Source of the DNA: Eledone cirrhosa
Taxonomy: Eukaryota
Reading direction: 5' to 3'
Assembly: GCA_964016885.1 (NCBI GenBank)
Contig: OZ024741.1
Span: 373,426,001 to 373,490,000 of the forward strand
Length of the DNA stretch: 64,000 nt
Shown here: piece by piece, positions 32,404-58,812 of the stretch
How positions within the stretch are numbered: the stretch's first letter is position 1
How the letters are laid out: each line of letters begins with the position of its first letter
Program-made: the position numbers and the translations under genes
The notes under the pieces: model-generated
The model's input: only the letters and a program-made list of their open reading frames with translations
Told to the model about the DNA's origin: nothing
Database searches by the model: none

Positions 32404-33320
32404 ATCATCATCATCATCACCGTTTTACGTCCGTTCTTCCACGCTAGCATGGGTTAGACGGGTTGTCTTGTTGTGGGCAGTGTCTGGTCGGCTGACCATG
32501 CCTTGCTCATACAGGAACTGATTTGGCTTGATTTCTACAGCTGGATGCCCTTCCTAACACCAACCTCATTTACAGTGAGTGCTGGGTGCTTTTTCGTGGC
32601 GCCTACACGTCCACTTTACAGTGTGGGCTGGGAGCTTTTTTTGCCGTGGCACCTCCACGACCACCTTGCGGTGTGGGGGGGGGGGGGCATATTGTCTATA
32701 TGCTTCAGCTTGTACCCATGGGAGGTCGGGTACTCTGTATTACTGCATGACGCCAGAAGTCACGGTCGTGTGTCATTGTCTTTGAGAGGTGTAATTGGGT
32801 AAGGTCGGCTTTTATCACCTCATCCCAGGTCATCTTGGGTCTCCCCACTCCACGGTTTCCATCAACTTCTAGTGCTCTGCACCTTTTTATGCAGCTGTCA
32901 TCCTTCATACGCATCACATGTCCATACCAGCGCAACCGCCTCTCCTGCAAACAGCATTTGATTCCTCTTATGCTCAGTCTCTCTCTCAATTCATTTATGC
33001 TTTGTCGTTCACGTATATTACTGTTACACATCCATCGGAGCATGCAGGCTTCATTTCTCTCTAATCTACGTAAGTCTTCCACCTTCAGCGCCCAGGTCTC
33101 ACTACCATGCAACATCGCTGTTCGGATACACGCATCATACAGTCTGCCTTTCATTCTGAGGGAGAAGCTTTTTGCAGCTAGCAGTGGTAGTAGTTCCCTA
33201 AACTTCTTCCATCCCGTTCTTACCCTAGTTATTGTACTTTCTGAACACCCACCTCCGCTGCTAATTCGGTCACCTAGGTAGCAGAAGCTGTCTACTGTTT
33301 CTACAGGGCCCTCCCAGAGA
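32404..33320 (-). mobile_element. RTE family B, 5'-truncated (adjacent to RTE-A fragment 32318-32403 and an old + strand RTE fragment 32140-32300)
   Basis: ORF 32705-33154; 3'UTR; (GAT)n tail. Confidence 0.93.
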
Positions 33321-35649
33321 TATATATATATATTTCTGTGTGTATATGCTCTAGAAATGGTACACTGTATACCTGAGAGGCATATGAGACAATTAACAGA
33401 ATTGGTGTTCTTTGTCTAGTTATAAAATCTGGCCTCTTAAAGAACCCTGTGATAAATATGAAATCTGTCATGTGACCTGCAAGACTAGCCATGGCTTTAG
33501 CAGGGAAAATGGCCTTAAAATAATTGTTGGTTGATTTGGATAATGTAGTTTAAGATACACAGTTGAATAAAAGACTGGATGGTCTTAGCTGGAATGTCCT
33601 TGATATAATAATGATTTCTGACATTGGCACATGGCCAGCAATTTGTGAGGAGGGGAAAGCTGTTTATATCGACCCCCACTACTTTACTGATATTTCATCA
33701 TCCCCAGAAGGATGAAAAACATAATTGACCTCAGTAGGATTTGAACTCAGAACATAAAGAGTCATAACTAAATGATGCAAAGTATATTGTCTGATGCCCT
33801 AATGGTTCTGCCAATCTACCATCTTCATTGGGGTTATATAATAATAATAACATCCAGAACCTCTATTTGGTTCCATTCAAAGACTGATGAAAGCCTGGTT
33901 AACTATCATTTCATTTAAGTTCTCTAGAGAAATGCGCCAAGGATATGATAACCTATCTGTGCTGCAGCTTGTTCTAGCAAATAATCTTTTATCGCTATAT
34001 AGGCAGTATAGTGGATATATGCTTGGGTCCAAAACGACAAACAAAATCAATTTTGCACATAGCTTATTTGTTGAAAACCAGGAAATGTATGCCAAAAGCT
34101 ACAATGTAGCCAACTGAGCTAACTACAACCCATTCACTTGACATCAGAATGGAATTCAGTCACCATAGATATTCATATTTATAATATATTAAGCAAGGGG
34201 TACAAACTGGGAAGAAAATCTCACAGTCAATAAGCTGTCTATCAATCTGATTCTTAACAATAAGTGATACAAACACAGGGATAGACAAAAAACATATCCT
34301 ACATCAATAATTAAAGAGTTACTCTACTTTTCTTTTTCCTGTAACTCCTGAGCGAGTCATAGGGGCACCGTATTGACATACAGCGTTTTTAGGACATTTT
34401 AAAACCTGGTGGAGCCCATCTCCTCTCCAGGTCTGAATATAGTAGATTTCTTCCAGAGACGGATAGAGAGTGAGAAAATGGAAGTGAGAAAGAGACACAG
34501 AGGAAGAATTGGCCCCAGTACTAGACTGGTACTTTTTTTATTGACCTTATATGGATGAATGGCAAAGTTGACCTCAGCAGGATTTGAACTCAGAGAGCAG
34601 ATAACTGAAATGTATTCCACAAAAAATTCTAACTGACATTCTAACAACTTTGCCAATTCATTGCCTGTTACTATACTAACCCTCAAAAAAGTAACCAGAG
34701 CTGTAATTTTACAAAAAAAAACCACGCTCTTTAACCATTTTGGTTCTAAACCTGAAACTACCCTGGTTTTATGATATGAAACTGCTCATTTTAAAATGCT
34801 TATTTATATGTTAAAACCATCCATCATAATTTTATTTTATAAATTTTTGTTCAATGTTTAAATGTCAGTTTACCAATGAAAGTTATTTCATTAAATTTCT
34901 CCAAATGTTTTATTTTCAAAATTAATCGAAACATATAGGCAGTATATTTCATTAAAAATACAGTAATGAAAGAGTTGATATATTTAGTATCAGTATTCAA
35001 GTTACTTAGTTGAAGATTAAAGTAAATCTGGATTGGTGGAAATGTTAAATGAGATGTCTTGCAGTATTTGTTGTGGGTCTTTGTATTTTGTGTATTTTGG
35101 TTGTAGACTTAATCCAACTTACCACCACCTTCTGGTTCTTGGCTGTCTTTAGTGATCTCCAGTTTTAAAATAGTTCCCCCTCCACCCCATTTCTTCTAAT
35201 AATCTTGGGAGTCATGAAAAAATAACATCCAGGGGTTCCTTTTTCCTGACTAAGTGGTTACAAAAAATCAAAACAAACGAAAAACCTTTGAGTCTAATAT
35301 TAAAAGTCTCTATTATCAAGTGTGAACTTCTAAAAAAGACAAAATGAAAAAAGAAAAAAAAAATGACATTTACAGGCTTTTCCAGAAAACAACAGGAAAA
35401 TGTTTAATATCAATGCAGACAGATTTCATTGTCACAGAGTATCATGGAGATACCACCTGTTAAATAACAGAGAGGAAAAATCGATTCAATGAAGAGTGTT
35501 TTAAAATTAGAATATCATGTATAAGTTAGAAGCAAACTTCTAAAGATGCAGTCAAAGTGTGATGTGTCATGCAACCTCAGAAATGTTAAACAGATCCATT
35601 TTTATTGAGGTATGGAAAAAAATAATACACAGTACCAACAATATATTGT

Positions 35650-35933
35650 GGAGGTACGTGGCCTGGTGGAAAGGGTATTGGATTTATGGTCATAATGTCA
35701 TGGGTTCGATTCCATGATTGGGTTGTGTGTTGTGTTCTGTTCTTGAGCAAAACACTTCATTTCATATTGCTCCAGTGTACTCAACTGAAAATGGGTACCA
35801 GCAATATCTGGGGGTTTAATCCTGTGATAGACTGGCATCCTGCTCAGGGGGATGTTTTGTACTCTCAGTTGCTTAACACTACAGAAGCCGGGATAAGCAC
35901 TGGTCTGATGAGCCTCCGGTCTTGAGACAAGCA
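35650..35933 (+). mobile_element. tRNA/CORE SINE, third family
   Basis: A/B boxes, ttcttgagcaaaacactt CORE, cctgtgatagactggcatcc, ccgggataagcactgg.ctgatgagcc; homolog at 40885-41168(-). Confidence 0.8.
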
Positions 35934-38884
35934 AAAAATCAAAACAATATATATGTATGGATGTATATTCTGTAAGCTGGGCAGCTTTTGTAATCTATCT
36001 TAATGTATTTCTTGGTGTGTCCCATCATATATTCTAAGATATATTCATTTTTCTTCTATTCTTTATTCTGGTTTCATGCAGTCATGTTGGGCCACATTTT
36101 TTGTTAAAGTCTAGCATTCATTTAATCAAATTCTATTTATGACACCACATAAACAAATGGCACCAGTTGTTATGCAGTGCAAATTTAAATACACATGGAC
36201 ACACATACATTAGGTGGTTCAGTAGATTTGTGGCTTATAGCATTAATATAGATCCTGAGCCACCCATCTGTGAAACAGTCATAACTAAGTATAATCAATA
36301 CAGACCTTAATGTGAAACCTTGCTTTTTTTCTGTGTGTGTGTGTGTGTCTGTGTGTGTGTCTGTCTATGCGTGTGTGTGCGTGTGTGTCTGTCTATGTGT
36401 GTATGCGTGCGTGTGTGTGTGTGCGTGTGTGTGTGCGTGTGCGTGCGTGAGTGTGGTGTGTGAAAAGTAACCAGAAATAACAAAGCAAATGACAACACAA
36501 TGGAGAAATATATTAGTTTAACACTTGAAATAATATAGATAGATAGATAGATGCACACTCTGTAAAACAGTTGGCATTAGAAAGTACATCCAGTTGTAGA
36601 AACCATGCAAAATATTAAATGTATTGAGTGAGGCATAGCTTCCAACCCATCTGAGAGAACAATAACTCAGATAAATGGTTGAGAACAATCCATTCAACCC
36701 ATGCCTGTATGGGAAACAAACATAAAATGATAATAATGATGATGGGGATGTTACATCATGAGCTTTCACACAATTTCCATCTACCAAATATCACTCAAAA
36801 GTATTTGGTGAACCCAAAGCTATAGTTGAAGATACTTGCCCAAGTACTTCTTAACCATCTAGCCTGTGACCATATAGCCTGTGCTTATGAATTTTCACAA
36901 TTCAAGAATAAAAGATAGTTACAAAATATATTGTTAATAAAAAAGTTATTAATGCTTGAATGCCCTTAAGATTAACAGAAATGTTTGCTGTGCCATGATT
37001 CTGTGGAGAAAACAACACGTTATGGAAAAAAAAAATCAATGTTTCCTGAACCACTGCAGGGAGATTTTATAAAAACCCACTGCTTAACTCCATTTTATAG
37101 TAGCAAACAGCTGAAAAGAGATATCTTCCTCCGGATAAATGTCTGTTTATCTTAGAATTCCCAGAGGATATGGTATTCATTCCCATCAAATAAGGGAACT
37201 GAATTACAAATACACGACAAAACACCATCAGTAAATTTAAACTAAAAAAATTTAAATTGGTTATCTAATACTATATTTGTTCAACCAGCCCACTTCAACA
37301 CAGAATGTATATCATCCTATAATATAATCGAATTAAATGTATCATACGTACATATGTATGTGTGTGTACATGTATGTATGAGTATGTGTGTGCATGTATG
37401 TATGTGGGTAAATTTGACTATATACAATGTGTGTATGTGTGACTACAGGGAAAATATAGTCCTAGAGTACCACAATTAAGTCAGATGTAGAATTGCACCC
37501 TATACACACTGTAAAGTGGTTGGTGGTAGGAAGGGCATCCAGCTATAGAAAGCTTGCCTAACAAAGGGTTGGGAGGACCCTCAGTTGTGTCAAAGACATG
37601 AAAAACCTTTCTTGTGCACTCAATAGAACACGAGACCGTACATAAGATCAGCAGCCTCACTACAGTACTGACTAGATCTATGTAGAACCATCCAACCCTT
37701 GCTAGCAGGGAAATTTGACATTAAAACGATGATGATCATGATAATATAAAGCATATCAGTGAAACTTCATCTTTTTCTTCTTTTCCCACTTATTCCAGAA
37801 AGGGTCATGGGGAGAGAGTCCTTAGGTGTCCTTTCGAATGGGTCCTTTCAGAAGCAACCATCAACAAATGATCTGGCTGGATTCCCAAGCAAGACCAACC
37901 AAGCTTATCCAACCATTTTACTCATCATCTACCTCTGGGTCTCATGCCAGTTGGCTTTACCCATAAAATCAGTCCTGTGACTCCTTCCTGGGATATTCTA
38001 ATTACGTGTCTATAGTATCAGAGCTATGATCTTTTAATGTGAAAAATTATTACATGTAAATCCATACACCTGGTTGGTATAAACATCTGAGAAAGCAGAA
38101 CTAGTGTGGAAGCCAGTTATCCAGTACATGTAAAATTATTACTGAAAGTCATTGAAAAAGGTGATCAAATATGGACAGCTGATTTTTTATGTTTTATCAG
38201 TTCTTAAATCCTTTTTCAGGGACTTCAAAATTGGGAAGAGGGTTTATGATAACTTCACACATATATTTGTAATTATTGGTGCAATATGCAAGATACAGGA
38301 CCCCAGCCGATCTGGGAGGTCAGTAGCTCTGCTTGAGTAGTGACTCAGTCTGTGATAAACCATCCAAACTTTACTAGCAGGGAAAACAGACATCAAATGA
38401 TGGTGATGATGATAAAGTGAACTACTTTATGTTCTGGAAACCCAGTTTGTAAGTGGGACACTAAAATCATGCAGGTTTTCTCTAAAGTTTAGCATATGGC
38501 TCTACTACATAATTATTTTTGTTCAAATTACCAAGGAAAGAGCTTTACTTCTTAATTACTTTTTTCTTGGGGGAAATTTTTAAGCCAAAATTAAAAATAC
38601 ACACATCTGGTGCAGGCACGGGTGGTAAAGTAGCTTTCTCCACAACCATCTAGTTTTGGGTTCTATCCAACAGTATACTACATTGGGAAACTATCTTCCA
38701 CAACCCAATCTCTTGTAACCGTAATTGAAAGGAGAAAACTGTTTGAAACCTGTTGTGTGTGTGTGTGTGTGTGTGCATGTAAACACACACACACACACAC
38801 GCATATAGTGATTAATATATAAACATATATCACATCTGAGAGGGGATTTCATGAATAGCATGTGTGTGTAGTATGTGTGTATGT

Positions 38885-39250
38885 GTGTGTGTGTGTATAA
38901 TCATCATCATCATCATATATATATACATCATCATCACCATCATCATCATTTGTATGTGCATATCTTTGTATACAAGCATGAATTGGACAATACATATTTA
39001 GACCACACTCTATGACAGTGTGTGTGTGTGTGTGTGTGTATAATCATCATCATCATCATCATTTGTATGTGCATATCTTTGTATACAAGCATGAATTGGA
39101 CAATACATATTTAGACCACACTCTATGACAGTGTGTGTGTGTGTGTGTGTGTATAATCATCATCATCATCATCATTTGTATGTGCATATCTTTGTATACA
39201 AGCATGAATTGGACAATACATATTTAGACCACACTCTATGGCAGTGTGTG
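38885..39250. repeat. 113-bp tandem repeat x3 built from an RTE-like tail plus TG/CAT microsatellite
   Basis: gaccacactctatg at 39001, 39114 and 39227. Confidence 0.9.
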
Positions 39251-39553
39251 TTTATCTCTGTGTTTTGCTTAGCATTGGATGTAAGGCATCTCTAGCCCAT
39301 CCCTCTCCAGGTGTGAACACAGCCGATTTCTTCCAGAGAAGGATAGCGAGAGTAAGAGAATGGAAGTGAGAAAGAGATATAGAAGAAGAACTGAACCCAG
39401 TACTTGACTGGTACTTCTTTTTATTGACTTTGAAAGGGTGAAAGGTAGAGTTGAGTGTAGTAGAATTTGAACTGAGAGAGCAGAGAGTGAAACTAATACC
39501 ACACAGCATTCTATGCAACATTCTAATGACTGCCAATTTGCCGTATATATAAA

Positions 39554-39736
39554 GGGCGGTGGTTTCGCAGTATCGGTAGAGCATCGGACGCCATGCTTCC
39601 AGCATAGTTACGTCCCTTTACGGTCTGAGTTCAAATCCCAACGAAGTTAACTTTGCCTTTCATCCTTACGGGGTCGATAAAATAAAGTACCAGTAATGTA
39701 CTGGATAATTGCTGGCCTTGTGCCTATAGTAGAAAC

Positions 39737-39741
<5 letters not shown>
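39554..39741 (+). mobile_element. tRNA-derived SINE (family of 2454/7173), head-to-head with an older minus-strand copy at 39265-39545
   Basis: Sequence identity to the 7173 copy. Confidence 0.88.
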
Positions 39742-39777
<36 letters not shown>

Positions 39778-40142
39778 TACACATATATATGTATACATAT
39801 ATATACATGCACATAATACACAGTTACAAACATATACACACACACATATATATATATATATACACACACACACATATATGTATACATATATACATATATA
39901 CATGCACATAATACATAATACACATACATACACAGCTACAAACACATACACACACATATATATATATACACACACACACACACATATGCACAGACACACA
40001 CACACATATATATAATTTTAAAAAAACGATCAAGTTTCGTTTACAGGTATCTATATTTTTATTGTGCATTATTCACTGAATCACATATACTATTTATATA
40101 TATATATATATATATGTGTGTGCAACAGTTTGTATATATATA

Positions 40143-40174
<32 letters not shown>

Positions 40175-40884
40175 CAAACTGTCACACACTTACATACATC
40201 TAATTATTTTTGCATGTACACATATGCAGTATGCAAAGAAATGCAACTATGATCAATAGCCTATGGTGTTATGGGACTAACTAGAATCACTTATTCTGTG
40301 AAGCCTGCAGTGTTGTTGTCGTCGTTGCTTTTATTTTATCGATTAGTCAGGGTAAGAACAGTGCCTATGACCTTTTCTTGGGGGCTTTCAAGACTGGTAG
40401 GAAGAAACCTCCCTGTAAGAGGCAGAGCATTCCACAGACACTTGTAATCTTAACATAATTTTTAGGGAGATACAGCATGATGCAGTGTATGACAAGGCTG
40501 GTCCTTTGAATTACAGGTACAGTCCATCCGACAAGCTTCCAAGCAATTTCCATCTACCAAATTTCCCTCACTAGACATGGGCTGACCCAAAGCTATAGCA
40601 AATAACACTTTCCCAAGATGCAATACAGTGGGATTAAACCTGGGACGTAATGATTCCTAAGTGAACCCCTTAATGTTCCCATACTGCACCCACAGACTGG
40701 TTGGAGAAAGTAAAATATCCTCAAAGTGAAGACCTGGTCTAAATATTTGCAACAGAGCAGATCCCACTAAAGATGCCCAATAATTTGGTAGTGGTATTAA
40801 CTTTTTTTCATACCAAACTGCTTGAAACTGCCCCAATTTCTATGATACACAGCCGTTTATTTTAGTGTTTATATCTAAAAGCCT

Positions 40885-41168
40885 AAAGTCTGTCTCAAGC
40901 CCTCGAGGCTCATCAGGCCAGTGCTTATCCCGGTTTCAGTGGTGTAAAGCAACTGAGAGTACAAGACTCCCAGCTGGACAGGATGTCAGTTCATTGCAGG
41001 GTTAAACCCCCATCTGTTGCTGGTATTCATTTTAAGCTGAGTATACTGGAGCAACGTGAAATTAAATCTTTTTCTCAAAAACACAACACACAACCCAGTC
41101 TAGCAATCAAACCCACAACATTATGATAGTAAGTCCAACACCCTTACCACTGGGACACATGCTTTCCA
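40885..41168 (-). mobile_element. tRNA/CORE SINE inserted in a TTAA-type MITE (about 40797-41317)
   Basis: Reverse complement of the 35650 family. Confidence 0.78.
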
Positions 41169-41789
41169 TTATTATTTTATATAAAAACCTTTGTAAAATT
41201 ATGTTCCAAACACTAGCTTAATAATGAGAAATTCACCAAAATTCTTGATTATTTTCCAAACGATTTTAATGTTATAAACAGTGCATTTCAATAGAAATAT
41301 GTTAACAAAAGGGTTTGAATAGGTGTTCAATTAAGTCTACTACCCAAACAGGCCATGGTGAGATTTGAACTCAGAACACAAAGAACCAGAAGAAATATCA
41401 CAATGAATTTTATCCGATCCTATAACACTACTGTTAATATGGTATTATGGTATGGTCCTGTAAATCCTGATGGAGTCCTGGGGTGCCATAGAAGCATACA
41501 GCATTTCTTGACCATTTGTTATGGCAGAGCCTATCCCTCTCCAGGTCTGAATACAGCATATTTCTTTCAGGGAAGGATAGAAAGTGAGAGATAGGAAGGG
41601 GAAAAGAGATATAGAGAAAGAATCGACCCCCAGTACTAGACTGTTACTTTTTTTATGGACCTCGAAAGAATGAAATGCAAAGGTGATCTAAACAGGGTTT
41701 GAACTTAAGGATCAGAGAGCTGGAACAAGTACCACAAAGCATTCTATCCAACATTCTAATGACTGCCAATTCACCACCTTTCAATATTA

Positions 41790-42540
41790 TAGGACCAACT
41801 AAAATGACTTGTTCTCCATAGCTTGCAGAGTTTTAGGACGAACTATAATGACTTTCTCTCCATAATTTACAAAGGTATGCCACCAACTATAATGGGTTTC
41901 TCTCCATAATTTACAAAGGTATGCCACCAACTATAATGGGTTTCTCTCCATAATTTACAAAGGTATGCCACCAACTATAATGGGTTTCTCTCCATAATTT
42001 ACAAAGGTATGCCACCAACTATAATGGGTTTCTCTCCATATTCTATAGAGTAGTAAGACCAAGTAGAACGGCTTTCTCTCCAGAACTTACCGAGTTTTAG
42101 GACCAACTATATTGGCTTTCTCTCTCTAGTCTATTAAGGTATAAGACCAGCTAGGATGACTTTCTCTCTACAGTCTATTGAAGTATAGGACCAATGAGAA
42201 TTAGTTTCTCTTTCTTTTTATAATCTATAGAGTTACATGACCGAGAATGATTTTCTCTTTATAGTCAACAGGACCAGCTAGAATGACTTTTTTCCCACAT
42301 TCTATTGAAGTATAGGACTAACAACAATTAGTTTCACTCCACAGAATTATAGAACTGAGAATTATTTTCTCTTTATACTCTACAGGACCAACTAGAATGA
42401 CTAGTTCTTCGTAGTCTATAGAGTTTCAGGACCAACAAAAAATTACTTTCTTTTCCGTAGTCGACAGAGTTATAGAACCAACTAGAATGAGTTACTAACC
42501 ATAGCCTATAGAGGTATGCCATCAGCTAGAATGACTCACA
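41790..42540. repeat. 44-bp minisatellite, perfect core 41855-42040 with degenerate flanks
   Basis: Unit ccaactataatgggtttctctccataatttacaaaggtatgcca. Confidence 0.9.
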
Positions 42541-42828
42541 CTTCTCTATAAAATAGATGGAAATACGACTTTGATGGTGACCCAATAGCCAATTGTTTGT
42601 GTCTGTTAATTGAAGTTTACATATACATGTTTGTTTTAGAATTTACTAAATATAAAATTCTATAAATGCAGCTGAAAAATATATTTTTAGATATATATGA
42701 ATGTGTGGGTGTGTGTGTGTACAATACAAGCATGTCTCCGTAAAGGTGCATGTACCCCTGTATCTGTACATAGATCGTTGTGTGTGTGTATAAGTGATAT
42801 CTGTGAGTGTGTGTATATATATATATAT

Positions 42829-42875
<47 letters not shown>

Positions 42876-42925
42876 AACATATATATATATATAAACATAT
42901 ATATATATAAACATATATATATATA

Positions 42926-42996
<71 letters not shown>

Positions 42997-43025
42997 TTAT
43001 ATATATATATATGTTTATATATATT

Positions 43026-43058
<33 letters not shown>

Positions 43059-43149
43059 GTATTGAAGTTTCCGTTGAAAACAGAAAAAGTCATAGGAGTG
43101 AAGAGTATATATATATATATGTTTATATATATATATATATATATATGTT

Positions 43150-43191
<42 letters not shown>

Positions 43192-43917
43192 GGTGTGTAC
43201 ACACACCTGTATGTTTTAACATAGACATAGAATGAGAGAAGTGTTGATATAAGGAAGGAGAGGGATTCATAAAATGTAAATAAAATAAACAAATGTAAAT
43301 AAATATGATCAGTTTGTCTTCTCGGTTGTGGTAACTTATTTATAAAAGTTGTCATTCTGGTGGTAGTATACTATATAGGACTCCCTTCCTTATACTGCTG
43401 CTGATCTATATAATAGGGGGTATTTCATTGTAATAGTGGCTGTGGTTGTAGGACCCTTCATACTCTGATGATGTATATAACAGTGGCCGCAATGTATATA
43501 TCATAGGACCCCTCATATTGTACTGCTGTATGTAACAGTGGTTGTTTATTGTGATAGTGGTTGTAGTGTATATATCATAGGACCCTTCATTATAGTGCTG
43601 TTGTGTATAATAGAGATCTTTCAATGGTGTATAAAATAAGGGGCTATGGTGATTGTCGTAGATGTAAGACCCGTCATTATAGTACTGGTGTATGTAACAA
43701 GGATTTTTCATTATGATAGCGGTTGTGATGTTGTTGGTTGTTTGTATATATACATATATATACATATATATATATACATATATATACATATATACATATA
43801 TATATATACATATATATACATATATACATATATATACATATATACACATATATATACATATATATACATATATACACATATATATACATATATACACATA
43901 TATATATATATATATAT

Positions 43918-43948
<31 letters not shown>

Positions 43949-44103
43949 TACATATATACATATATATATACATATATACATATATATATACATATATACA
44001 TATATATATACATATATACATATATATATATATACATATATACATATATATATATATACATATATACATATATATATACATATATACACATATATATATA
44101 TAC

Positions 44104-44136
<33 letters not shown>

Positions 44137-44137
44137 C

Positions 44138-44206
<69 letters not shown>

Positions 44207-45297
44207 CATATATATATATACACATATATACATATATATATCTATATCTAACAGGACCCTTCGTATGTATTAGTGCTGGTGTATATGACATAGTGATAGT
44301 GGCTGTAGTGATGTCTATGTAACAGGACCCTTCATTAGAGTGTTGGTCTATATGACAATAAGTCTTATATTGTGATAGTGGTTGCGATGTTGTTGGTTGA
44401 GGTATATGGTATAGGACTCCTTTATTATAGTGCTGGTCTTTTTATAAGGGTCCTTTTATTATGATGGAAGCGATGGTGTTGAATGTATAGCAAGTTTCTT
44501 CATTGTAATGACAACAAGTATAATAGGTGAAGCAGGGTATTATGTTGTGATGGATATGGTAGTGTAGTGGTGGTGGTGTATAGTATAGGGTTGTTCATTA
44601 TAATGACAGCATATAAAATAGGGAGTCATATGTTGTAATGGCAGTGGAGATCTAGTGGAGTTGTGTGATATGTATAGCAGGGTTCTTCGTTGTAGTGATA
44701 ATTATATATAATAGGGGTTCTTATATTGTGATGGAGGGGTTGGTTTGTGTGTGTGTCTGTGTGTGCGTGTGTATACACACACAAAAGGGTTCTTCTTTGT
44801 AATGACAGTACATATAAGAGTAGGGGGTGCCTTTTGTTGTGATGGTGGTGGTTGTGTATATATTAGGGTCCTTTATTTTTGTGCTGACATATGAAATACA
44901 TGAGGTTCTTCCTCGTGGTGGTGTATGTAAGAGAGAGGGAGAACTCAGGAGGTAATAATATGTTTGTAAATGTGAGTAAACAATGTTGGAGTAAGGTGTG
45001 ACAGTGGCATTAGAGCTCGGCTGCATGTTGATGCACTGTCAAGTGATAATTTGGAAGCTTGCACTTAGCAGCAGGCATATTTGGAAGGAGTGAGAACAGG
45101 GTAAGGGGGGGGGGGGTGAGAAGAGGAAAGCAAGGTAAGAAAGGAAGGAAAGGAGGGAGAAAGGAAAGAGGGATAGATAGAGAGAGAAAGAGAGAATGTG
45201 CTGCTATAACATACACAGAACATGTATGATATGACAAAAACAAAAAGCATGCTATCTCCTGAAGAAAAAGTGATCAATGAAGAGGAAAAAAACTTAC

Positions 45298-45374
45298 CAA
45301 ATCCAGGAATGTCTTCTCCGGGCACTCAAGGACTCGTTACCTGGCACGGATAACATTGCTGTCCGTAGAGGCAT
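45298..45374 (-). CDS. PDE4: Probable first coding exon of a PDE4/dunce cAMP phosphodiesterase long isoform
   Basis: gccaaaATG; MPLRTAMLSVPGNESLSARRRHSWI+TG|gtaagt phase-2 donor; matches the RRHSWIC end of the unique first exon of vertebrate PDE4D3/PDE4B4; downstream exons not found in this window. Confidence 0.72.
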
Positions 45375-45905
45375 TTTGGCTTAGCTTGGGTCAGTAACAG
45401 TAACAAATCCACTCAGAAAAATGAAGGGGGGCTGGGGAGGGGGAGTTGAATAATATATTTTTCAATTTGTGCATGTAAAAGACCGCCTAATCTCAGTGAA
45501 ATTCTGAAATATGAGTAGTGGTCTAGTTTTGTGCAGGCAATCAATGCTTGGCAGCAGCAGCGGCAGCAGCAGTGGTAGCAGCAGCAGCAACAGCAGCAGC
45601 AATAACACTAGCTGCAGCAGCAGCAATACTAGCTGCAGCAGTAGTGCTTTGATGGATGCTGTAATTGTGCCCCATTCTCCTCTGGGTTAGTCTGCAATCC
45701 CATACCTCATTCACTCATTGATCCAATGGACCTGAATGAAGTGAACAAAGCAATCATTTGTCCATTATAGACAAAGTGAGTGTCACATGTGCTGAAAGCA
45801 TTCTGTGTGGCTGACATAGGACATTCAGATATTAAGATACTAATATATGTAGTATTCTCTCACAGTTGTGTCAGCCAATAGCCAACTACACTCTTAGTTG
45901 TTCCA
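45375..45905 (-). promoter_or_regulatory. Putative 5'UTR/promoter of that exon, with a (CTG)n tract
   Basis: Unique, TE-free sequence directly upstream of the ATG; interrupted CAG/CTG repeat at 45551-45645; CCAAT motif near 45875. Confidence 0.4.
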
Positions 45906-45939
45906 GTAGGTGTTTCGAAAATATATGATCAGTTTTATC

Positions 45940-45999
45940 ACATACACACATACACATACACATACTACATACATACACTTATACATACCACACTACAAC

Positions 46000-46068
<69 letters not shown>

Positions 46069-46707
46069 ACACTACAACACTTACATACATACATACACTT
46101 ATACATACCACACTGCAACATGTACATATATATACCACACTACAGCACATACATACACACATACATACCACACTGCAACATATACACATATACATACCAC
46201 ACTGCAACATGTACATATATATATACATACCACACTACAGCACATACATACATACATACCATACTACAGCACATACACACATACATACCACACTGCAACA
46301 TATACACATATACATACCACACTGCAACATGTACATATATATATACATACCACACTACAGCACATACATACATACATACCATACTACAGCACATACACAC
46401 ATACATACCACACTGCAACATATACACATATACATACCACACTGCAACATGTACATATATATATACATACCACACTACAGCACATACATACATACATACC
46501 ATACTACAGCACATACATACATACATACCATACTACAACATACATACATACATACATACATACATACATACATACATACCATACTACAACACTTACATAC
46601 ATACACACATATACATACCACACTATAACATATATATATACCACACTACAGCACATACATACCATACTACAACACTTACATACATACACACATATACATA
46701 CCACACT

Positions 46708-46773
<66 letters not shown>

Positions 46774-48830
46774 ACACTACAGCACATACATATATACTAT
46801 ACCCTATATATACACATACCACACTACACCACATACCACACAACACCACATACCACACTACACCACATACATACCACACTACACCACATACATACCACAC
46901 ATACACATACATACACACACATACACACACATACATACCACACCACATACCCACACATACATACACACATATACATACAACACTACATCACATACACACA
47001 CATACACACACACTGCACTACACCAAATACCCCCCACACACACACACTATACCACATACATATAAACACACACACATATATATACAGACCACTCTACACA
47101 CAGACACACCTCTTTGCATAGTCATACATCTCCACTCACACAAACACACACACATATTACACCACACACACTACATCACCACACACACATACACATACTA
47201 GACTAGACCATAAACACCACATACACACTAAGACACACACAAATTTACCACACCTCACATATTCACATGCCGCACCCACTATACCCACCATGTCACACAC
47301 ACTCACATACATCCCCCCCCCCACTATGTGCACATACTTCATACACAACACCACACACATAGCGTCACATACACACACATACCACATTATGGACACACAC
47401 ACACACACCCTATATACAACACATACACACCCTATATACAACACACACACATAGCGTCACATACACATACATACATACACATACCACATTATGGACATAC
47501 ACATACACACCATATATACAACACACACACACATATATGCTTATATATACCTCACCACACCTTCATATATACACATCATACACTACACCACACACACCAC
47601 AGACATACACATATACACACTACATATACACACTACATATACTATGTGTACATTACACATACATCACACCACCTAACTCACTACACACACACATCTACTA
47701 TACCATACACACACATACAACACTACACACAACTCACTACATACATATACACCTTATACATACCTACACTAAATTCATACACCTATCACATCACACATAC
47801 ATACACACATACACAGACAACACTTTACACAGACAACACTTTACACAGACAACACTTTACACAGACAACATATTACACAGACAACACATTACACAGGTAA
47901 CACATTACATAGACAACACATTACACAGGCAACACATTACACAGACAACACTTTATACAGACAACACATTACACAGGCAACACATTACACAGACAACACT
48001 TTACACAGACAACACATTACACAGGCAACACTTTACACAGACAACACATTACACACAACACATTACACAGGCAACACATTACACAGACAACACTTTACAC
48101 AGACAACACATTACACAGACAACACTTTACACAGACAACACATTACACAGACAACACATTACACAGGCAACACATTACACAGACAACACATTACACAGAC
48201 AACACATTACACAGACAACACATTACACAGACAACACATTACACAGGCAACACATTACACAGACAACACATTACACAGACAACACTTTACACAGACAACA
48301 CATTACACAGACAACACATTACACAGGCAACACATTACACAGACAACACTTTACACAGACAACACATTACACAGACAACACATTACACAGACAACACATT
48401 ACACAGACAACACATTACACAGACACATTATACAGACAACACATTACACAGACAACACATTACACAGGCAACACATTACACAGACAACGCATTACACAGG
48501 CAACACATTACACAGACAACACATTACACAGACAACATATTACACAGACAACACTTTACAGACATTACACAGACACATTACACAAACTACATTGCACATA
48601 TATACGCATTATACCTACTACATGCGCGTATACCTACCACATTACTACACACCATGTGCACATACACCCTACCACCTATCCACACACACACACCTACTAT
48701 ATCATGTATATGCACATTTCCCAAACTACACTACACATATATATACACACTACACATACTACTCTACAAGCACAACAGACTGCTCCACATACACACACAC
48801 ACCTACCACATGACGCATACACACTCTCCA
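45940..48830. repeat. CA-rich low-complexity block with a 120-bp tandem (about 46140-46520) and a 16-bp minisatellite (47811-48585)
   Basis: Identical lines at 46201/46321/46441; unit acagacaacac(a/t)ttac. Confidence 0.92.
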
Positions 48831-49069
48831 CACTCCACGCTGAATATTATTTTCAAGTATAGCTTTTGGTCTGGGGTGGAGGAGGGTGCAGGTGAACACA
48901 CGTATATGTTCATATCTCTATGTATGTGTATGAGCATATAACTATGAAGGTGTATGTATGCATGTATGTGTATATGCGTATGTGTTTATATGTATGTATG
49001 TGCACACGTGAGAGAGAAGTGATAGGTATATATCACTGTCTTTCTCATGAGAGAGAGAGTGGATGAAAA

Positions 49070-50185
<1,116 letters not shown>

Positions 50186-50464
50186 CAGTTACTAATATTT
50201 CTATACTACACAACTGTTGATATTGGGTAAATCTCTACACATTTGTCTCAGTTGAGACAAGGTATGGCGTGTTTCACTACAGCCACATAATCCCAATAAT
50301 AATAATAATGATTTCTTTATTTGCCAGAAGGGCAGCGTTGGAAGTGTCATTATAAAGACAAGTTACAACATAAAGGTGAGGGTTTATACAGAAATGAGGC
50401 ACGGGGGGGGGGGGGTAACCTGTATACATAGCATACTAATTATAGAAGACATTCAGTCCTAATT

Positions 50465-51830
50465 GAATTGGCAGAATTGTTAACACGTCAGATAGAATGC
50501 TTTACGTTATTCATCTCACCTCATTGTGTGCTCCGAGTTCAAATCCCGCTGAGGTCAATTTTGCCTTTCATCCTTTCGAGGTTGATAGAAAAAGTACCAG
50601 TCTAGTACTGGGGTCGATTCTTCCTCTATAGAAATAATCAGTTGTGTTCAGACCTGGAGGGGGTTGGGCTCCACCAGGTTTAAATGTGTCCTAGACATGC
50701 CACATGGCGATGCCTCTACAATTCCACAAGGAGTTATGGAATCTTTACCCTTTATCCGTCCTAATAATTGTTTCTACTTTTGACACAAGGCCAGCAATGA
50801 CCTCAGTGCATTACTGGTGCCTTATTTTATCGACCCTGTAAGGATGAAAGCAAAGTTAACCTCAGCGGGATATGAATTCAGATGGTAAAGGTCCATAACT
50901 ATGCTATGGCATCCGAACCTCTACCAATACTGCCAATCCACCACCCTAATATCGTTACAAAGCCAAAAACTCGTGGGAAGAGGGGAATTGAGTAAATTGA
51001 CCCCAGTGTGTTACTGGTAGTTTAGTTTATGGCCTTTAAATGGCTGAAAGGCAAAGCTAAGCTTGGCGGGATTTGAACTCACAACGTAAAGGGACATAAC
51101 TAAATACTGTAAAGCATTTTATCCGATGCTCTACCGATAATTTTTAATTTAGGCACAAGGATAGGAATTCGTGGGTAGGGAGGAATTGATTAAATTGTCC
51201 CCAATGCATTACTGGTAGTTTAGTTTATCGCCATCAAATGGATGAAAGGTAAAGCTAACCTTAGCAGGATTTGAAGTCAGAACATAAAGGGATGTAACTA
51301 TATGCTGCAAAGCATGTTGTCTCACACTACCAATACTGCCAATCCACTGCCCTAATAATAATAATGGGTTCTGATTTAGGCACAACAAGGCCAGCAATTT
51401 GTGGCGAGAGGGAAAATTGCTTAAATAAACCCTGTTACTTAACTAATACTATATTTTATTGACATCGAAAGGATGAAAGATAAAGTAGACATCGACGAGA
51501 TTTGAGCTCAGAATGTAAAAAGGTCCAAACCAAATACCACAAAGAATTGTCCAATACTTTAATGATTCTTCTATTAATTCACCAAACAAATAACAACAAT
51601 TATGAAGATTTCTAATTTAGGCCACAAGGCCAGCAATAATAGTTTCTGATTTAGGCATAAGGCCAGCAATAATGCTTTCTGATTTAGGCACAATACCAAC
51701 AATTTAAGGGGGGGGGGGGGGCAAATCGATTAAATTTACCATAGTGCATTACTGATACTTTTTTTATCGATGTAAGGAAGAAAGGCAAAGTTAACTTAAG
51801 CAGGATTTGAACTCAATGCCAGCAATTATA
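50465..51830. mobile_element. Cluster of about 6 SINEs of the 2454 family (one +, five - head-to-tail)
   Basis: Repeated ggcacaaggccagcaat...attactggt...ggatgaaaggcaaag..aacct..gcgggatttgaactcag. Confidence 0.85.
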
Positions 51831-52603
51831 ATAATAATGATACATTGATTATGAGATCTCATTGATATTGCATAAAATTACTGAATTTAAATTATATTAT
51901 CCTACATAATTGAATAATAAAAGGAAAAAGAATTAAAGCTGTTCTATAAAAAACAAAAGTTAAAAAGAAATAAAATATAAATTATTCTATAAAATTGTTA
52001 ATTTTTATTGGTTATTTTTATAGGTGGTACAGCTAATTCAAACTGTTCCATACTGCTCTTTATTTTATTTTTATTCTATCTATTTTCTTTTCTTTGTTTT
52101 CTACATTTCTTGTCTGGCAATTTTAACATTATTTTATTTTTATTTTATTCAGTTTGTTTGTTTTTTTTTCATTTTAACATGCAAGGACAGTAATAAGCTA
52201 AAGCCAATCTTTTGACATCTATCAGATAAGTTAAAAGTCAAATCATTTTCCAAAGGTTTTTTTTTTTTGTTATTTGTCTTTGTTCCAACATAATACTGAT
52301 GCAGTTTTATTGATAGAGAGAAAGCTGATAATCTAAATTTAGCCTGGAGTGCCATAACATTCCAGTAGTTGAGCTGACCATTACCTGGTAGTAAATGATA
52401 CTGTTATGCACCTCAAGCCTAAAAAATTGTTTACTTCTCCACACTGCACCTTTTTCTGTTGCTAACAAAACAACATGTCCTGAGGTATACTGGACATACG
52501 GTATTTATTCTTTTATTGGTTGTAAACACAAACACATATGCGTATGTATATATATACATATATATATATACACACACACACACATATAGATATATATATA
52601 TAT

Positions 52604-52672
<69 letters not shown>

Positions 52673-52695
52673 CACACACACACACATATATATAT

Positions 52696-52732
<37 letters not shown>

Positions 52733-52773
52733 CATATATACACACATATATATATATATATATATACATATAT

Positions 52774-52808
<35 letters not shown>

Positions 52809-52815
52809 CATATAT

Positions 52816-52857
<42 letters not shown>

Positions 52858-53143
52858 AAGGTATATATTGAGTTAGGAACTCAAAATAGTGTCTTACAAT
52901 AAAATTAACTTTGCGAAACAACAACAAGTTGTCTAGGTAATTGGTAGTTACCACAATTCCGGTTTGTATTTATTTTCTTATTGAGACAAGGGAACCCAAT
53001 TGTCTATAGTTAGGATTCTTTTACCCTTAGCGAATCAGGTCCCTTACGATTTGAACACATATATGTGTATGTCTGTGTTCGCTTTTCTTTTATATTCTGT
53101 TATAATACATAACATATATATATGCATATATATATATACATAT

Positions 53144-53174
<31 letters not shown>

Positions 53175-53296
53175 GATATACATATACAAATATACATACA
53201 TATATATATACATATACATACATATATATATATACATATACATACATATATATATACATATACATACATATATATATATATACATATACATACACT

Positions 53297-54003
53297 ATAT
53301 AATATACGTGAACGGCAAAGCATAAACGAACTAAGGAAAAAATTAGAAATAAGAGGGATCAGATGTTGTTTACTCGAGAGAAGGCTACGTTGGTATGGAC
53401 ACGTGATGCGCATGAAAGTCGATAGCTGTATAACAGAGTGCAGGACAATAAAGATAGACGGTAGCCAAGGAATAGGCAGACCTAGAAAAACCTGGGACGA
53501 GCTGATAAACTCCGACCTCACACACTTACACCTCTCCAAGACAATGTCACTGGACCGAGACCTTTAGCGGTACTCAGTAACAGAGAAGACCCGCCTTACC
53601 TAAATACAAAGTAAAACCTACTACAGCCAGTAGGCATCTCTAACAAAATACACCCCGTCCCACCACCACCACCCCCACTCCATCCACACCACCCCGTTCT
53701 ATGTAAAAGTTATGTTGGTGCCGCGCCATCGAGGCCGAAACAAATGAGATCGTGTAGGTGTCACGACAAAAAAACACACAGTCCACGCTGTAATGTGGCC
53801 GTGTAGGCAACACGGTAAAAACCTCCCAGACCCACACTGTAAATGTGGTTGGTGTTAGGAAGGGCATCCAACTGTAGAAAACCTGCCAGACTGTCCTATG
53901 CGAGCAAGACAATCACTCTTGCCTCAAGTGGGAAAACCCCCGTCCAAACCCATGCAAGCGTGGAACACGGACGTTAAACGTTGATGATGATGATGATGAT
54001 GAT
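53297..54003 (+). mobile_element. RTE family A 3' fragment
   Basis: [11 protein letters not shown]...RLRWYGHV; 3'UTR; (GAT)n tail. Confidence 0.92.
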
Positions 54004-54011
54004 ACACATAC

Positions 54012-54044
<33 letters not shown>

Positions 54045-54061
54045 CATACATATACACATAC

Positions 54062-54100
<39 letters not shown>

Positions 54101-54144
54101 CATACATATACACATACATATATATATATATACATACACATACA

Positions 54145-54185
<41 letters not shown>

Positions 54186-54192
54186 GTATACA

Positions 54193-54230
<38 letters not shown>

Positions 54231-54239
54231 CATATATAT

Positions 54240-54270
<31 letters not shown>

Positions 54271-54540
54271 CATACATATATATATATATATACATACATA
54301 TATATATATACATACATACATACATATATATATATATACATACATATATACTTGGGGAGGGTCATATTTGTGTAATATTGCCAGAATTAATAACAGAACA
54401 TACTCACTCTTTGGTTGGTTCTCGCTTCTCGCTTCTGTGTCTTTTATATCGGTAATCTAACTTACTCAGTCCTCAATGTTGCCATTGACTGACCGACGGT
54501 CAAAAATAATACAGATACTATATAGACACAAACACATATA

Positions 54541-54596
54541 TATAGTTTATCATAAATCTTTCGTTGCACATCTGCAACATCGTCAGTGGTGCTATA
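54541..54596 (-). ncRNA. Type I hammerhead in the Penelope 3' region
   Basis: tatagcacca-CTGACGA-t-gttgca-gatg-tgcaac-GAAA-gat-TTA-tgataaactata. Confidence 0.7.
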
Positions 54597-54801
54597 TTTT
54601 CCTCCTGTTGTATTGTATGTCTACGCCATTTTTATTCAGTCTGTCTATATATTTATTTATTTATTTGCTTGTTTGTTTATTTTATTTTTTGCGCATGCGT
54701 TTGCGTGTGTGTAGAGTGTTTTGTTTGCTGTGTGATGGGTGACTAGTGTGTGTTTATGTGCTTGTATTTATTTATTTATTTATTTTATTTTATTTACTTA
54801 T

Positions 54802-55356
54802 TTATACTTCTCTTAGGTCACTGTTGTTTGTTTTGGTGTTGTTGTTATTCCATTCATTCTTTCTGTTTAGCCTTGGTCTTCTAATTTCTATTTCACTGGC
54901 CTCTCTGATTTGCCTATCTGCTGGGTCATTTCTATGTTTAGATATTATTCTAATTTCTATGTTGTCTATGTTACCGTCATGTTGTTGTCTAGCAAGTTCG
55001 TATAGTACTGACCCGTTTTTTCGTCCTTTTAGTTCCCCCCAGTGTTGGTCTATCCTTTCACCTATGCTACGAGCTGTCTCACCTATGTATGTTGTTGTCA
55101 TGTTTCTGCAAGTACGCTCTGTACATCTTATGCTATAGACTACGTTTCTAGTTTTACAGTTTATCTGGAGGTTCACCTTACATATGATACATTTCCTATT
55201 GGTACAGTGGGGTTTCTTAAAAGGGTAGGTTTTGCTGATCAGGGATTTTATGGTGGTTCCTGGCTTTTCTACCACCTTTATTTTTAAGTGGGTCTTTCTC
55301 AGGGCCTTTCTACACTGGTTAGCTAATTTCCCTCCAGGGGTAGCGTCCACAAACAT
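54802..55356 (-). pseudogene. 5'-truncated Penelope GIY-YIG endonuclease domain
   Basis: CTNRKCIIC..CKTRNVVYSIRC...YIGETARSIGERIDQH...REASEI..RPRLN; Cys-rich linker before VVY-YIG. Confidence 0.88.
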
Positions 55357-55459
55357 GACACTCTGGTATCTTATACTTCTCCATGGCTCCTTCGTATATA
55401 CATATATTTATATACATATATATATATATACATATATATATATACATATATTTATATAC

Positions 55460-55542
<83 letters not shown>

Positions 55543-55543
55543 C

Positions 55544-55576
<33 letters not shown>

Positions 55577-55614
55577 GATGTGAGAAAAACCACAGACCCT
55601 CCATCTCAACTCTA

Positions 55615-55650
55615 CTTTTGAAAAGCAGAAGAACTGCGAAACCGGTAAAG
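55615..55650 (+). ncRNA. Minimal type I hammerhead, U3-A8 variant
   Basis: ctt-TTGAAAA-gcag-aagaa-ctgc-GAAA-ccg-GTA-aag; palindromic stem III ACCGGT. Confidence 0.68.
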
Positions 55651-55923
55651 GAACCAAATAAATATATATATATTTTTTTTTTAAATAAGACTCCAGTTGC
55701 ATTTTCGATTTCATCTCTTTTTCTTTATACATTCACTCGTGTAGGACACCTCGGTTATTTTTCATTTTGTAAAAAAAACTCACTTTCTAATACATATATA
55801 TATATATATACACATATACATATATATATATATACATATATATACATTTATGTATATACATATATATATATATACATATATATATTTATATACATATATA
55901 TATACATATATATATTTATATAC

Positions 55924-55972
<49 letters not shown>

Positions 55973-56019
55973 CATATACACATATACATATATATACATA
56001 TACATATATATACATATAC

Positions 56020-56412
56020 ATCATCATCATCATCATCATCATCAGGTTTAGCGTCCGTGTTCCACGCTTGCATGGGTTTGGACGGGGGTTTTCCCACTTG
56101 AGGCAAGAGTGGTTGTCTTGCTCGCATAGGACTGTCTGGCGGGTTTTCTACAGTTGGATGCCCTTCCTAACACCAACCACATTTACAGTGTGAGGCTGGG
56201 AGGTTTTTACCGTGTTGCCTACACGGCCACATTACAGCGTGGACTGTCTGGCAGGTTTTCTACAGCTGGATGCCCTTCCTAACACCAACCACATTTACAG
56301 TGTGGGGCTGGGAGGTTTTTACCGTGTTGCCTACACGGCCACATTTACAGCGTGGACTGTGTGTTTTTTTGTCGTGACACCTACACGATCTCATTTGTTT
56401 CGGCCTGGATGT
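56020..56412 (-). mobile_element. RTE family A 3'UTR-only copy with internal about 113-bp duplication
   Basis: ggactgtctggc...ttacagcgt occurs twice; similar copy at 59197-59510. Confidence 0.85.
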
Positions 56413-56764
56413 TATATATACATATACATATATATACATATACATATATATACATATATATATATTTACATATATATATACATATACATATATATATACA
56501 TATATATATACATATATATACACATACACATATATATATATATCTACATACATATATATACATATATATATATATCTACATATATATATATATCTACATA
56601 TATATATATATATCTACATATATATATATATCTACATACATTTATATATCTACATACATATATAAATCTACATACATATATATATATATACATATATATA
56701 TACATATATATATATTTATACATATATATTTATATACATACATATACATATACATACATATATA

Positions 56765-56942
56765 TATATCTATCTATCTATCTAAGGCGGGGAAAATTCC
56801 TGAGATCCATGGACGAGTTCCCTCCAGCGGTCTCTGTCCCTCATTATCGCTGCCATGTCCTGCGTCTCCAACAGACCAGTGTCTGACCTTAGGGCATCAA
56901 CATACGTCAACCTTGGTCTTCCTCTTCCAGTGTGTCCATGTA
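56765..56942 (-). mobile_element. 3' end of a fourth RTE-like LINE family (D) with (TAGA)n tail
   Basis: [23 protein letters not shown]...[11 protein letters not shown]. Confidence 0.8.
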
Positions 56943-56985
56943 TACATATATATACATATACATATATATACATATATATATATGA

Positions 56986-57487
56986 ATTGAAATTTCCGTT
57001 GAAAACAGAAAAGGTCATAGAAGTGAAGAGTGCTCTATGTAAATACCCGCAAAGAGTAAAAGATATGACCGCCTTTGAATTACTTACATAGAGCACTCTT
57101 CACTTCTATGACCTTTTCTGTTTTCAACGGAAATTTCAATACTTATACAGCTCCCAAGGGAATGATCGCAGCATATTCTACATCTTTATGAGATTGGCAC
57201 CTTCCAGCCCTTTTAAAGTCGAGCACTCTTCAGTCATAGGATTTTAAACCAATACTGAACATGGATAGATACCCTTTGGACTACTCTGTAAAGAATATCC
57301 CAACACCTTCTAACACTCTCTACACGAAAATACTGATAGACAAAGTAGAGAAGGTTGTTAAAAGAATGAGATGGAAAGCTTTGATTCTCGATGGACAATT
57401 TAACACGGATTCTACGGAATATTTTGACATCAAAACTCATAAATACCCGCAAAGAGTAAAAGATATAACCGCCTTTGAATTAACTTG
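56986..57487 (+). mobile_element. Penelope-like 5' fragment with terminal inversion and 400-bp spaced direct repeat
   Basis: ORF 57261-57488 YSVKNIPTPS..LIDKVEKVVKRMRWKA resembles PLE ORF N-termini; 57-bp inverted repeat 56986-57042/57084-57140. Confidence 0.6.
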
Positions 57488-57583
57488 AAAGATTATTATA
57501 TATTTCATATTCTAATTCATTTGTCTATATCTTTTTTTTGATTTTCTTGACGAGATTTTCCAAGTATTTACCCATGTTTTATA

Positions 57584-57660
57584 TTGCCTCGTCTGACGAA
57601 CGAATGAAGACGCTTCTTTCATATGCATCCTCATTCGGGAAACCTCTGGTAATGAGGTAA
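57584..57660 (+). ncRNA. Type I hammerhead ribozyme
   Basis: ttgcctcgt-CTGACGA-a-cgaatga...tcattcg-g-GAAA-cc-tct-g-GTA-atgaggtaa; 9-bp stem I, 7-bp stem II, 3-bp stem III; predicted cleavage after 57651. Confidence 0.82.
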
Positions 57661-57698
57661 TTATATTGTATTGATTTTTATACATTACATATATATAT

Positions 57699-57736
<38 letters not shown>

Positions 57737-57742
57737 ATATAT

Positions 57743-57780
<38 letters not shown>

Positions 57781-57804
57781 ATATACATATATACATATAT
57801 ATAC

Positions 57805-57950
57805 AAAAAAGCACCCAGCACTCAGTGTAAATGAGGTTGGTGTTAGGAAGAGCATCCAGCTGTAGAAATCAAGCCGGAATCAGTTCCCGTTCCACCTCTG
57901 CAAGCAGGGAAAAAGCGGACGTAAAATGAAATGATGATGAAAATGATGAA
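57805..57950 (+). mobile_element. 3' fragment of the RTE-tailed SINE
   Basis: Matches 29160-29295. Confidence 0.8.
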
Positions 57951-58073
57951 TGATACATATATATACATATATATACATATATACATATATATATATACAT
58001 ATATATACATACATACATATATATAAATATATACATATATATACATACATACATATATATACATACATACACA

Positions 58074-58105
<32 letters not shown>

Positions 58106-58116
58106 CATATATATAC

Positions 58117-58147
<31 letters not shown>

Positions 58148-58158
58148 CATATATATAC

Positions 58159-58189
<31 letters not shown>

Positions 58190-58388
58190 CATACATATAC
58201 ATATATATACATATATACATATATATACATATATATATACATATATATACATACATACATATATATACATATATATATATATATATACATATATATACAT
58301 ATATATACATAAATATATATATACATATATATATACATATATATACATATATATATATATACATATATATACATATATATATATATAC

Positions 58389-58421
<33 letters not shown>

Positions 58422-58646
58422 CATATATATACATATATATATACATATATATACATATATATACATATATATATATACATATATATATACATATATATAT
58501 ACATATATATATAAACATATATATACATATATAGATATATACATATATATACATATATATATATATACATATATATACATATATATATATATATATACAT
58601 ATATATACATATATATATACATATATATACATATATATATATATAC

Positions 58647-58687
<41 letters not shown>

Positions 58688-58702
58688 TACATATATATAT
58701 AC

Positions 58703-58733
<31 letters not shown>

Positions 58734-58750
58734 CACATATATATATATAT

Positions 58751-58789
<39 letters not shown>

Positions 58790-58812
58790 TATATACACAT
58801 ATATATATATAT

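Follow-up and report, generated by a model that had tools for sequence, protein, structure and literature searches.

The 64,000-nt window (the whole stretch of DNA analysed; C2:373,426,001-373,490,000, C2 being the contig that carries it) lies in a single PDE4 (dunce) locus, the exons of which are ordered on the C2 minus strand and span 1.165 Mb (Table 1). The window holds one alternative first exon of this gene. Its 77-nt coding part starts with an ATG at 45374, runs for 25 codons ending in RRRHSWI and closes with TG; on re-reading the window letters, the coordinates, the reading frame and the donor TG/GTAAGT were as an earlier note on this DNA had given them. The same note had called the ATG a good Kozak start, which is true of the A at -3, but not of the C at +4. 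As it had anticipated for a PDE4 gene, UCR1, UCR2 and catalytic exons were found downstream on the minus strand.

Table 1. Features of the window (positions without prefix) and of the surrounding PDE4 locus (C2 positions)
Feature	Position	Strand	Remark
First exon ending RRHTLANV	C2 373.913 Mb (373,912,826-373,912,911)	minus	441 kb upstream of the 45298..45374 exon
RRHSWI(C) first exon	C2 373.471 Mb	minus	
Another first exon	C2 373.226 Mb	minus	
Common FDVENG...RRESF (UCR1a) exon	C2:373,078,485-373,078,309	minus	
Short-form first exon, STSALR...YSFW	C2 373.037 Mb (373,037,3xx)	minus	
UCR exons	C2 372.89-372.82 Mb	minus	
Catalytic and final exons	C2 down to 372.748 Mb	minus	
First 45.3 kb of the 392,812-nt intron ending at the common FDVENG exon (C2:373,078,485)	1..45297	minus	LINE-like fragments, microsatellites
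Splice donor GTAAGT, phase 2	45292..45297	minus	Unaligned contig ends start exactly at 45298
Coding part, alternative first exon of PDE4/dunce long form	45298..45374	minus	25 codons + 2 nt, Cys finished by next exon; junction in relatives' contigs, 4 of 8 runs
W-I-C tail, likely partner-binding residues	45298..45305	minus	Conserved beyond PKA consensus
RRHS, PKA consensus site, Ser23; positional equivalent of PDE4D3 Ser13	45306..45317	minus	Putative phosphorylation site
LSVP, L-x-V-P, candidate calcineurin docking site	45342..45353	minus	Residues 8-11, 11 residues before the RRHS serine
Probable 5' UTR part of the exon	45375..45934	minus	Upstream limit approximate; relatives' contigs
Presumed promoter region of the exon and intron of the RRHTLANV-start isoform	45935..64000	minus	RRHTLANV to common-exon splicing per octopus RefSeq models

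We searched the 3.0-Gb genome with the degenerate pattern RRHSWI+TG/GTRAG and obtained a single match, the exon itself, and none with the reversed control. Therefore, the exon is not a chance occurrence. Across all six frames of the window, RRxSW has a single occurrence. When 15 octopod PDE4 isoforms were compared with the window, a significant match was observed at this exon alone, and no further octopod PDE4 exon lies within the 64,000 nt. The 25 encoded residues are residues 6-30 of PDE4 isoform X4 of Octopus bimaculoides (RefSeq XP_014768220.1), residues 5-30 of which match the window at 100%, and in that protein they are joined to the same FDVENG exon. XP_014768220.1 is an automated model, a functional study of which was not found, and it starts five codons earlier than the Eledone exon. 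This earlier start is ruled out in Eledone because an in-frame TAA lies three codons upstream of the ATG. The exon is real, of a known type and already annotated in O. bimaculoides.

The earlier note had also put at least 45 kb of the window into a dunce intron. Intron it is, but this intron is 392,812 nt long and the entire window lies inside the gene. In the genome, the FDVENG pattern has three other matches (C1, C11 and C22), and RRESF adjoins the C2 match alone. This common exon is identical to that of Octopus proteins; differences from the Octopus sequences compared were seen in the short-form exon and in the UTR. Within the window, LINE-like reverse-transcriptase fragments occur on both strands (1000-2400, 9000-12600, 21000-24400, 27000-28400, 32700-33400 and 60400-63900), interrupted by long TA-rich microsatellites.

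Other parts of the locus and of the genome deserve mention. RRHTLANVR marks a second deeply conserved first exon, of phase 2 and with an RRxT site, which is common to octopod, abalone, Lineus, crustaceans and insects including D. melanogaster dunce. We do not claim its homology to the vertebrate RRFTVAHTC exons, as that pair scored 17 and fell outside the best 25 pairs of the comparison described below. The short-form first exon STSALR...YSFW is kept in octopods, abalone and Lineus, and in the Octopus models the UCR1a exon may be separated from the exon that follows by two micro-exons of 7 residues each, both optional. Elsewhere, C23:4,795,000-4,885,000 carries a tandem cluster of eight phosphodiesterase domains, each uninterrupted, in open frames of 818-1,671 codons and with 26-35% identity to PDE4; from its sequence, this cluster reads as an intronless PDE expansion.

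The splicing of the exon was followed in contigs from 8 of the 24 listed runs, all from related species, none registered as RNA and all presumed to be of RNA origin, which were aligned to the window. An exact join of 45298 to the FDVENG exon, the junction that the earlier note had named as a check, was present in four of the eight (X1, X2, X8 and X9, from four studies and with three organism codes). Beyond 45298, the X8 and X9 contigs match the first bases of the common exon exactly, and those of X1 and X2 match them except for a single synonymous base; the far side extends for 225 letters in X9 and for 29 in X1, X2 and X8, the latter being below the 31-letter threshold for bridging. Contigs of X16 and X21 end at 45298 and are accompanied by unspliced ones, those of X3 cover upstream sequence only and none of the coding part, and X4 had no contig on the exon region. 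The phase-2 donor fits the acceptor of the common exon, so that TG + T make up the Cys of the product RRHSWIC-FDVENG. The coding differences listed among the relatives (45345, 45348 and 45357) are all synonymous third-position changes, as read by eye; in the UTR, each contig has ∼15 substitutions and ∼20 gap positions. In related species, the exon is thus joined by splicing to the common UCR1 exon, which lies 393 kb away.

Upstream of the ATG, the contigs run unbroken over 45298-45546 in X2, X8, X9, X16 and X21, X21 extends to 45764, and X3 covers 45630-45934 only. This sequence probably belongs to the 5' UTR of a promoter-bearing first exon. We consider it unlikely that the exon is instead internal, behind an unseen non-coding first exon, although contigs cannot reveal transcription starts and the UTR would contain up to 11 upstream ATGs (11 between 45934 and 45375, none of which reads into the exon). 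Against an internal position, the contigs are colinear with the genome for 170-390 nt before the ATG, where no splice joint was reported, and in vertebrates each 5' exon of a long form has a promoter of its own according to the available part of PMC2929239. A bacterial promoter scan scored at chance and is irrelevant here. The probable UTR includes a CTG/GCT-rich repeat (45547-45625), through which a 44-codon alanine-rich frame runs from an upstream ATG at 45675. On the intronic side, an 81-base block ∼210 nt past the donor (45010-45090) has 3 differences in the X16 contig, in which the sequence between the donor and the block is replaced; this block may possibly be a conserved non-coding element.

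Next, we surveyed the occurrence of the RRHSWIC end in other animals. In a protein search with the common exon (best 120 of 3,379 matches), RRHSWI[CG] stood just before FDVENG in at least nine arthropod proteins. A profile of motif plus common exon (best 120 of 4,161 matches, a selected list and not a frequency) gave an RRHS-type end in 81 of the 82 new proteins listed. Among the matches listed, vertebrate PDE4D (from fish, frogs and birds), PDE4B (from bear, birds and fish) and PDE4C (from shark, frogs, fish and echidna, in which RRHSCI[CG] is frequent) have an RRHSWIC-type end adjoining the common exon, and such an end is present also in amphioxus, Mytilus, Lineus, sea spider, tick, amphipod, mayfly and other insects; in these vertebrate and invertebrate proteins, the motif sits directly before FD[VIL][ED][ND]G. 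RRHSWIC itself was found in 17 of 18 distinct invertebrate segments and 25 of 39 vertebrate ones. The vertebrate PDE4D3 start and a 17-residue vertebrate PDE4B start, which we take to be PDE4B4, end with it at the common exon, as does the octopod exon. The arthropod dunce isoforms (RRHSWIC[S/G]) share with the octopod the motif, an upstream L-x-[VI]-P and the position before FDVENG, but their N-termini are longer and a further residue precedes the common exon.

The motif may not be ubiquitous: among the isoforms listed, which for most clusters are a part only, 4 of 10 protostome isoform clusters have it (octopus, Lineus, tick and mayfly), and the abalone, crab, two prawn, cockroach/termite and thrips clusters do not. 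A cluster search at 50% identity, in which isoforms are collapsed, recovered it in 2 of 135 new proteins, both of invertebrate type. The matches listed included no cnidarian, echinoderm, hemichordate, annelid, nematode or PDE4A version, and the Drosophila proteins retrieved, long isoform-I types only, had no RRHSWIC-type end. A homologue search with residues 8-47 of XP_014768220.1 returned eight candidates and no match; among PDB chains, the best long-form match begins at residue 58, so the start segment is uncovered.

We compared first exons anchored at the junction with the common exon. Among 6,942 invertebrate × vertebrate pairs of first-exon families, the RRHSWIC pair scored best (39; next score 26, mean -1.8, sd 6.4), with the qualification that many families in this null are mispredicted intron read-throughs and that the vertebrate side was picked with a profile built on the motif. 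The likeness of vertebrate and protostome exons consists of seven residues and their position; nothing upstream of the motif aligns, and the vertebrate PDE4D3 start also differs from the octopod one in having no L-x-[VI]-P. These seven residues could have arisen twice, through convergent evolution of a PKA site close to that junction, RRx[ST] being found near the 3' end of numerous PDE4 first exons that are unrelated. Such a history would be favoured by Johnson et al. (2010; PMC2929239): in the part of their study available, PDE4D3 is found in mammals only, PDE4B5/PDE4D6 are the exception in sharing starts, and long-form starts arose independently in each gene, by drift. Convergence is, however, very improbable in our estimate. 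H, W, I and C are unnecessary for PKA, the pair ranks first of the 6,942, and octopod, mussel, amphioxus and three vertebrate paralogues have the same end at the junction. Nor is the Cys a mere by-product of the donor consensus, because in arthropods and Lineus it is kept off the junction, followed by 1-2 more residues.

Shared bilaterian ancestry of the RRHSWIC exon is, on the other hand, highly probable, as vertebrate 4B/4C/4D, amphioxus, mussel, nemertean and arthropods have the same end at the common exon. The proposal that the exon predates the protostome/deuterostome split thus gains support, on the strength of seven residues and their position, from amphioxus and three protostome phyla. 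For this exon, our sequence comparisons contradict PMC2929239 as far as its available text goes. The stretch is an octopod PDE4/dunce alternative N-terminal exon, and we consider it likely that it came from a bilaterian exon which also gave rise to the PDE4D3-, PDE4B4- and PDE4C-type starts.

RRxS followed by a hydrophobic residue is the PKA consensus, and the RRHS of the octopod exon conforms to it. Its vertebrate counterpart had been equated with Ser13 of PDE4D3, and this numbering held: the two serines are at 13 and 54 in all three vertebrate PDE4D proteins checked, in agreement with the PKA sites Ser13 and Ser54 named in the available part of PMC7770493, and the RRHS/RRES serines are at 14/56 in two further vertebrate proteins. 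RRxS/T is also treated as a PKA site in the accessible text of PMC13022171. In what is available of PMC7770493, Ser13 phosphorylation is reported to enhance binding of PDE4D3 to mAKAP, and PDE4D3 is doubted as a native mAKAP partner in heart. In the available parts of other sources, PDE4D3 is reported in RyR2 and AKAP9 complexes (PMC11281825), and in nematodes PDE-4 and the RyR homologue are reported to co-precipitate (PMC9113742); the available part of PMC7291338 lists PDE4B4 as a long form and holds nothing more on it.

In an AlphaFold model (30 sequences), residues 1-111 have pLDDT <50 and are predicted to be disordered, as expected for linear motifs. As H, W, I and C exceed the PKA consensus and the Cys survives off the junction, a binding partner is suggested. 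In the mechanism that we propose, the exon would equip the long form with a disordered segment that serves as an address tag. The RRHS serine would be phosphorylated by PKA, and H-S-W-I-C would then alter how tightly an anchoring partner is bound, in the manner of Ser13 for PDE4D3/mAKAP. The phosphorylated tag would recruit the enzyme to sites of a fresh rise in cAMP. By analogy, we regard such PKA-dependent recruitment via an anchoring partner as reasonably likely.

Upstream of the RRHS serine, protostome exons have a further element. L-x-[VI]-P was present 10-16 residues before the serine in 16 of 17 distinct protostome segments (LxVP in 13, LxIP in 3) from molluscs, a nemertean, chelicerates, a crustacean and insects, compared with 4 of 168 other invertebrate first-exon ends (shuffle mean 0.56, maximum 4); the 17 segments are related rather than independent, 10 being named insects or beetle-like, and a Fisher P thus overstates the enrichment. 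It was present in none of 54 vertebrate segments and not in the one from amphioxus. The P-to-S spacing is at least 9 residues in 13 of the 16 (octopod 11, Mytilus 9). Calcineurin docks on LxVP with at least 9 residues to the phosphosite, as in PKA-RII (PMC3582496, available part), and TAK1 has LxVP plus RRRS (PMC13022171, likewise). The octopod layout resembles PKA-RII (LDVP...RRVS, spacing 9) and TAK1 (LDVP...RRRS, spacing 13) in having LxVP and then a PKA serine, in a disordered region; LSVP lies where pLDDT is <50. These two proteins are, however, unrelated to PDE4, and the octopod Ala-Met flank is outside the strict definition of the motif. That definition, a polar-hydrophobic [NQDESRTH][YTDFILV] flank in the accessible part of PMC5156906, fits 3 of the 17 protostome segments and does not fit the octopod AMLSVP. 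A narrow pattern search of XP_014768220.1 found no PxIxIT-like site, which is not required in all substrates. Because of the flank and the missing PxIxIT-like site, we have not filed the octopod LSVP as a calcineurin substrate.

Two readings of this element were weighed, in both of which the exon is real and ancestral. One, to which we give close to an even chance, takes L-x-[VI]-P as a hydrophobic anchor, either for a membrane or for a different partner, that corresponds to the M/L-x-V/L-N/S of vertebrates at similar distance. It accords with the small number of strict calcineurin motifs, with an upstream [LM]-x-[VIL]-x, without the proline, in 37 of the 54 vertebrate segments, and with the hydrophobic binding of membranes by the N-terminal 16-20 residues of an Aplysia long form (PMC4580752, a text that does not settle the isoform type). 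It accounts less well for the retention of L and P across molluscs, nemertean and arthropods while the flanks vary, and for the spacing of mostly at least 9 residues; moreover, the PKA-RII site itself has Asp before Leu (PMC3582496, in its available part). In the other reading, the upstream L-x-V-P of protostomes would dock Ca2+-activated calcineurin, which would strip the RRHS phosphate and so reset the PKA site. Argued from analogy, this docking is a tentative proposal, plausible at somewhat less than an even chance. At the same tentative level, the bilaterian ancestor may have had a PDE4D3-type isoform, the protostome first exon being a PKA-on/calcineurin-off cassette built like the PKA-RII peptide, of which vertebrates kept the PKA half and lost the dock.

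The deep ancestry of the exon is apparently unpublished. The literature within our scope, from which subscription papers (including the primary Aplysia PDE4, PDE4B4 and Ser13 studies) are excluded, contained no invertebrate D3-type exon and no PDE4 LxVP site, and the portions available of bioRxiv 10.64898/2025.11.29.691281, PMC13095499 and PMC6567041 held nothing on the RRHSWIC motif. The sole evolutionary study found, PMC2929239, treats the starts, in its available part, as late, mostly mammalian and independent inventions; its supplements, outside this scope, may show the likeness of D3 and B4. What is new here is the distribution of the motif across bilaterians and three vertebrate paralogues, together with an LxVP-like motif confined to protostomes.

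The isoform-specific starts of PDE4 determine where cAMP is degraded. The retention of a phospho-motif of seven residues at a single junction, across protostomes, amphioxus and three vertebrate paralogues, implies an equally old binding partner, and beetles or molluscs could be used as models for PDE4D3-type regulation. If LxVP docks calcineurin, calcium would be tied directly to the positioning of a learning-and-memory enzyme; and if the cassette is true, one dunce isoform of molluscs and arthropods would act directly as a switch for coincident calcium and cAMP.
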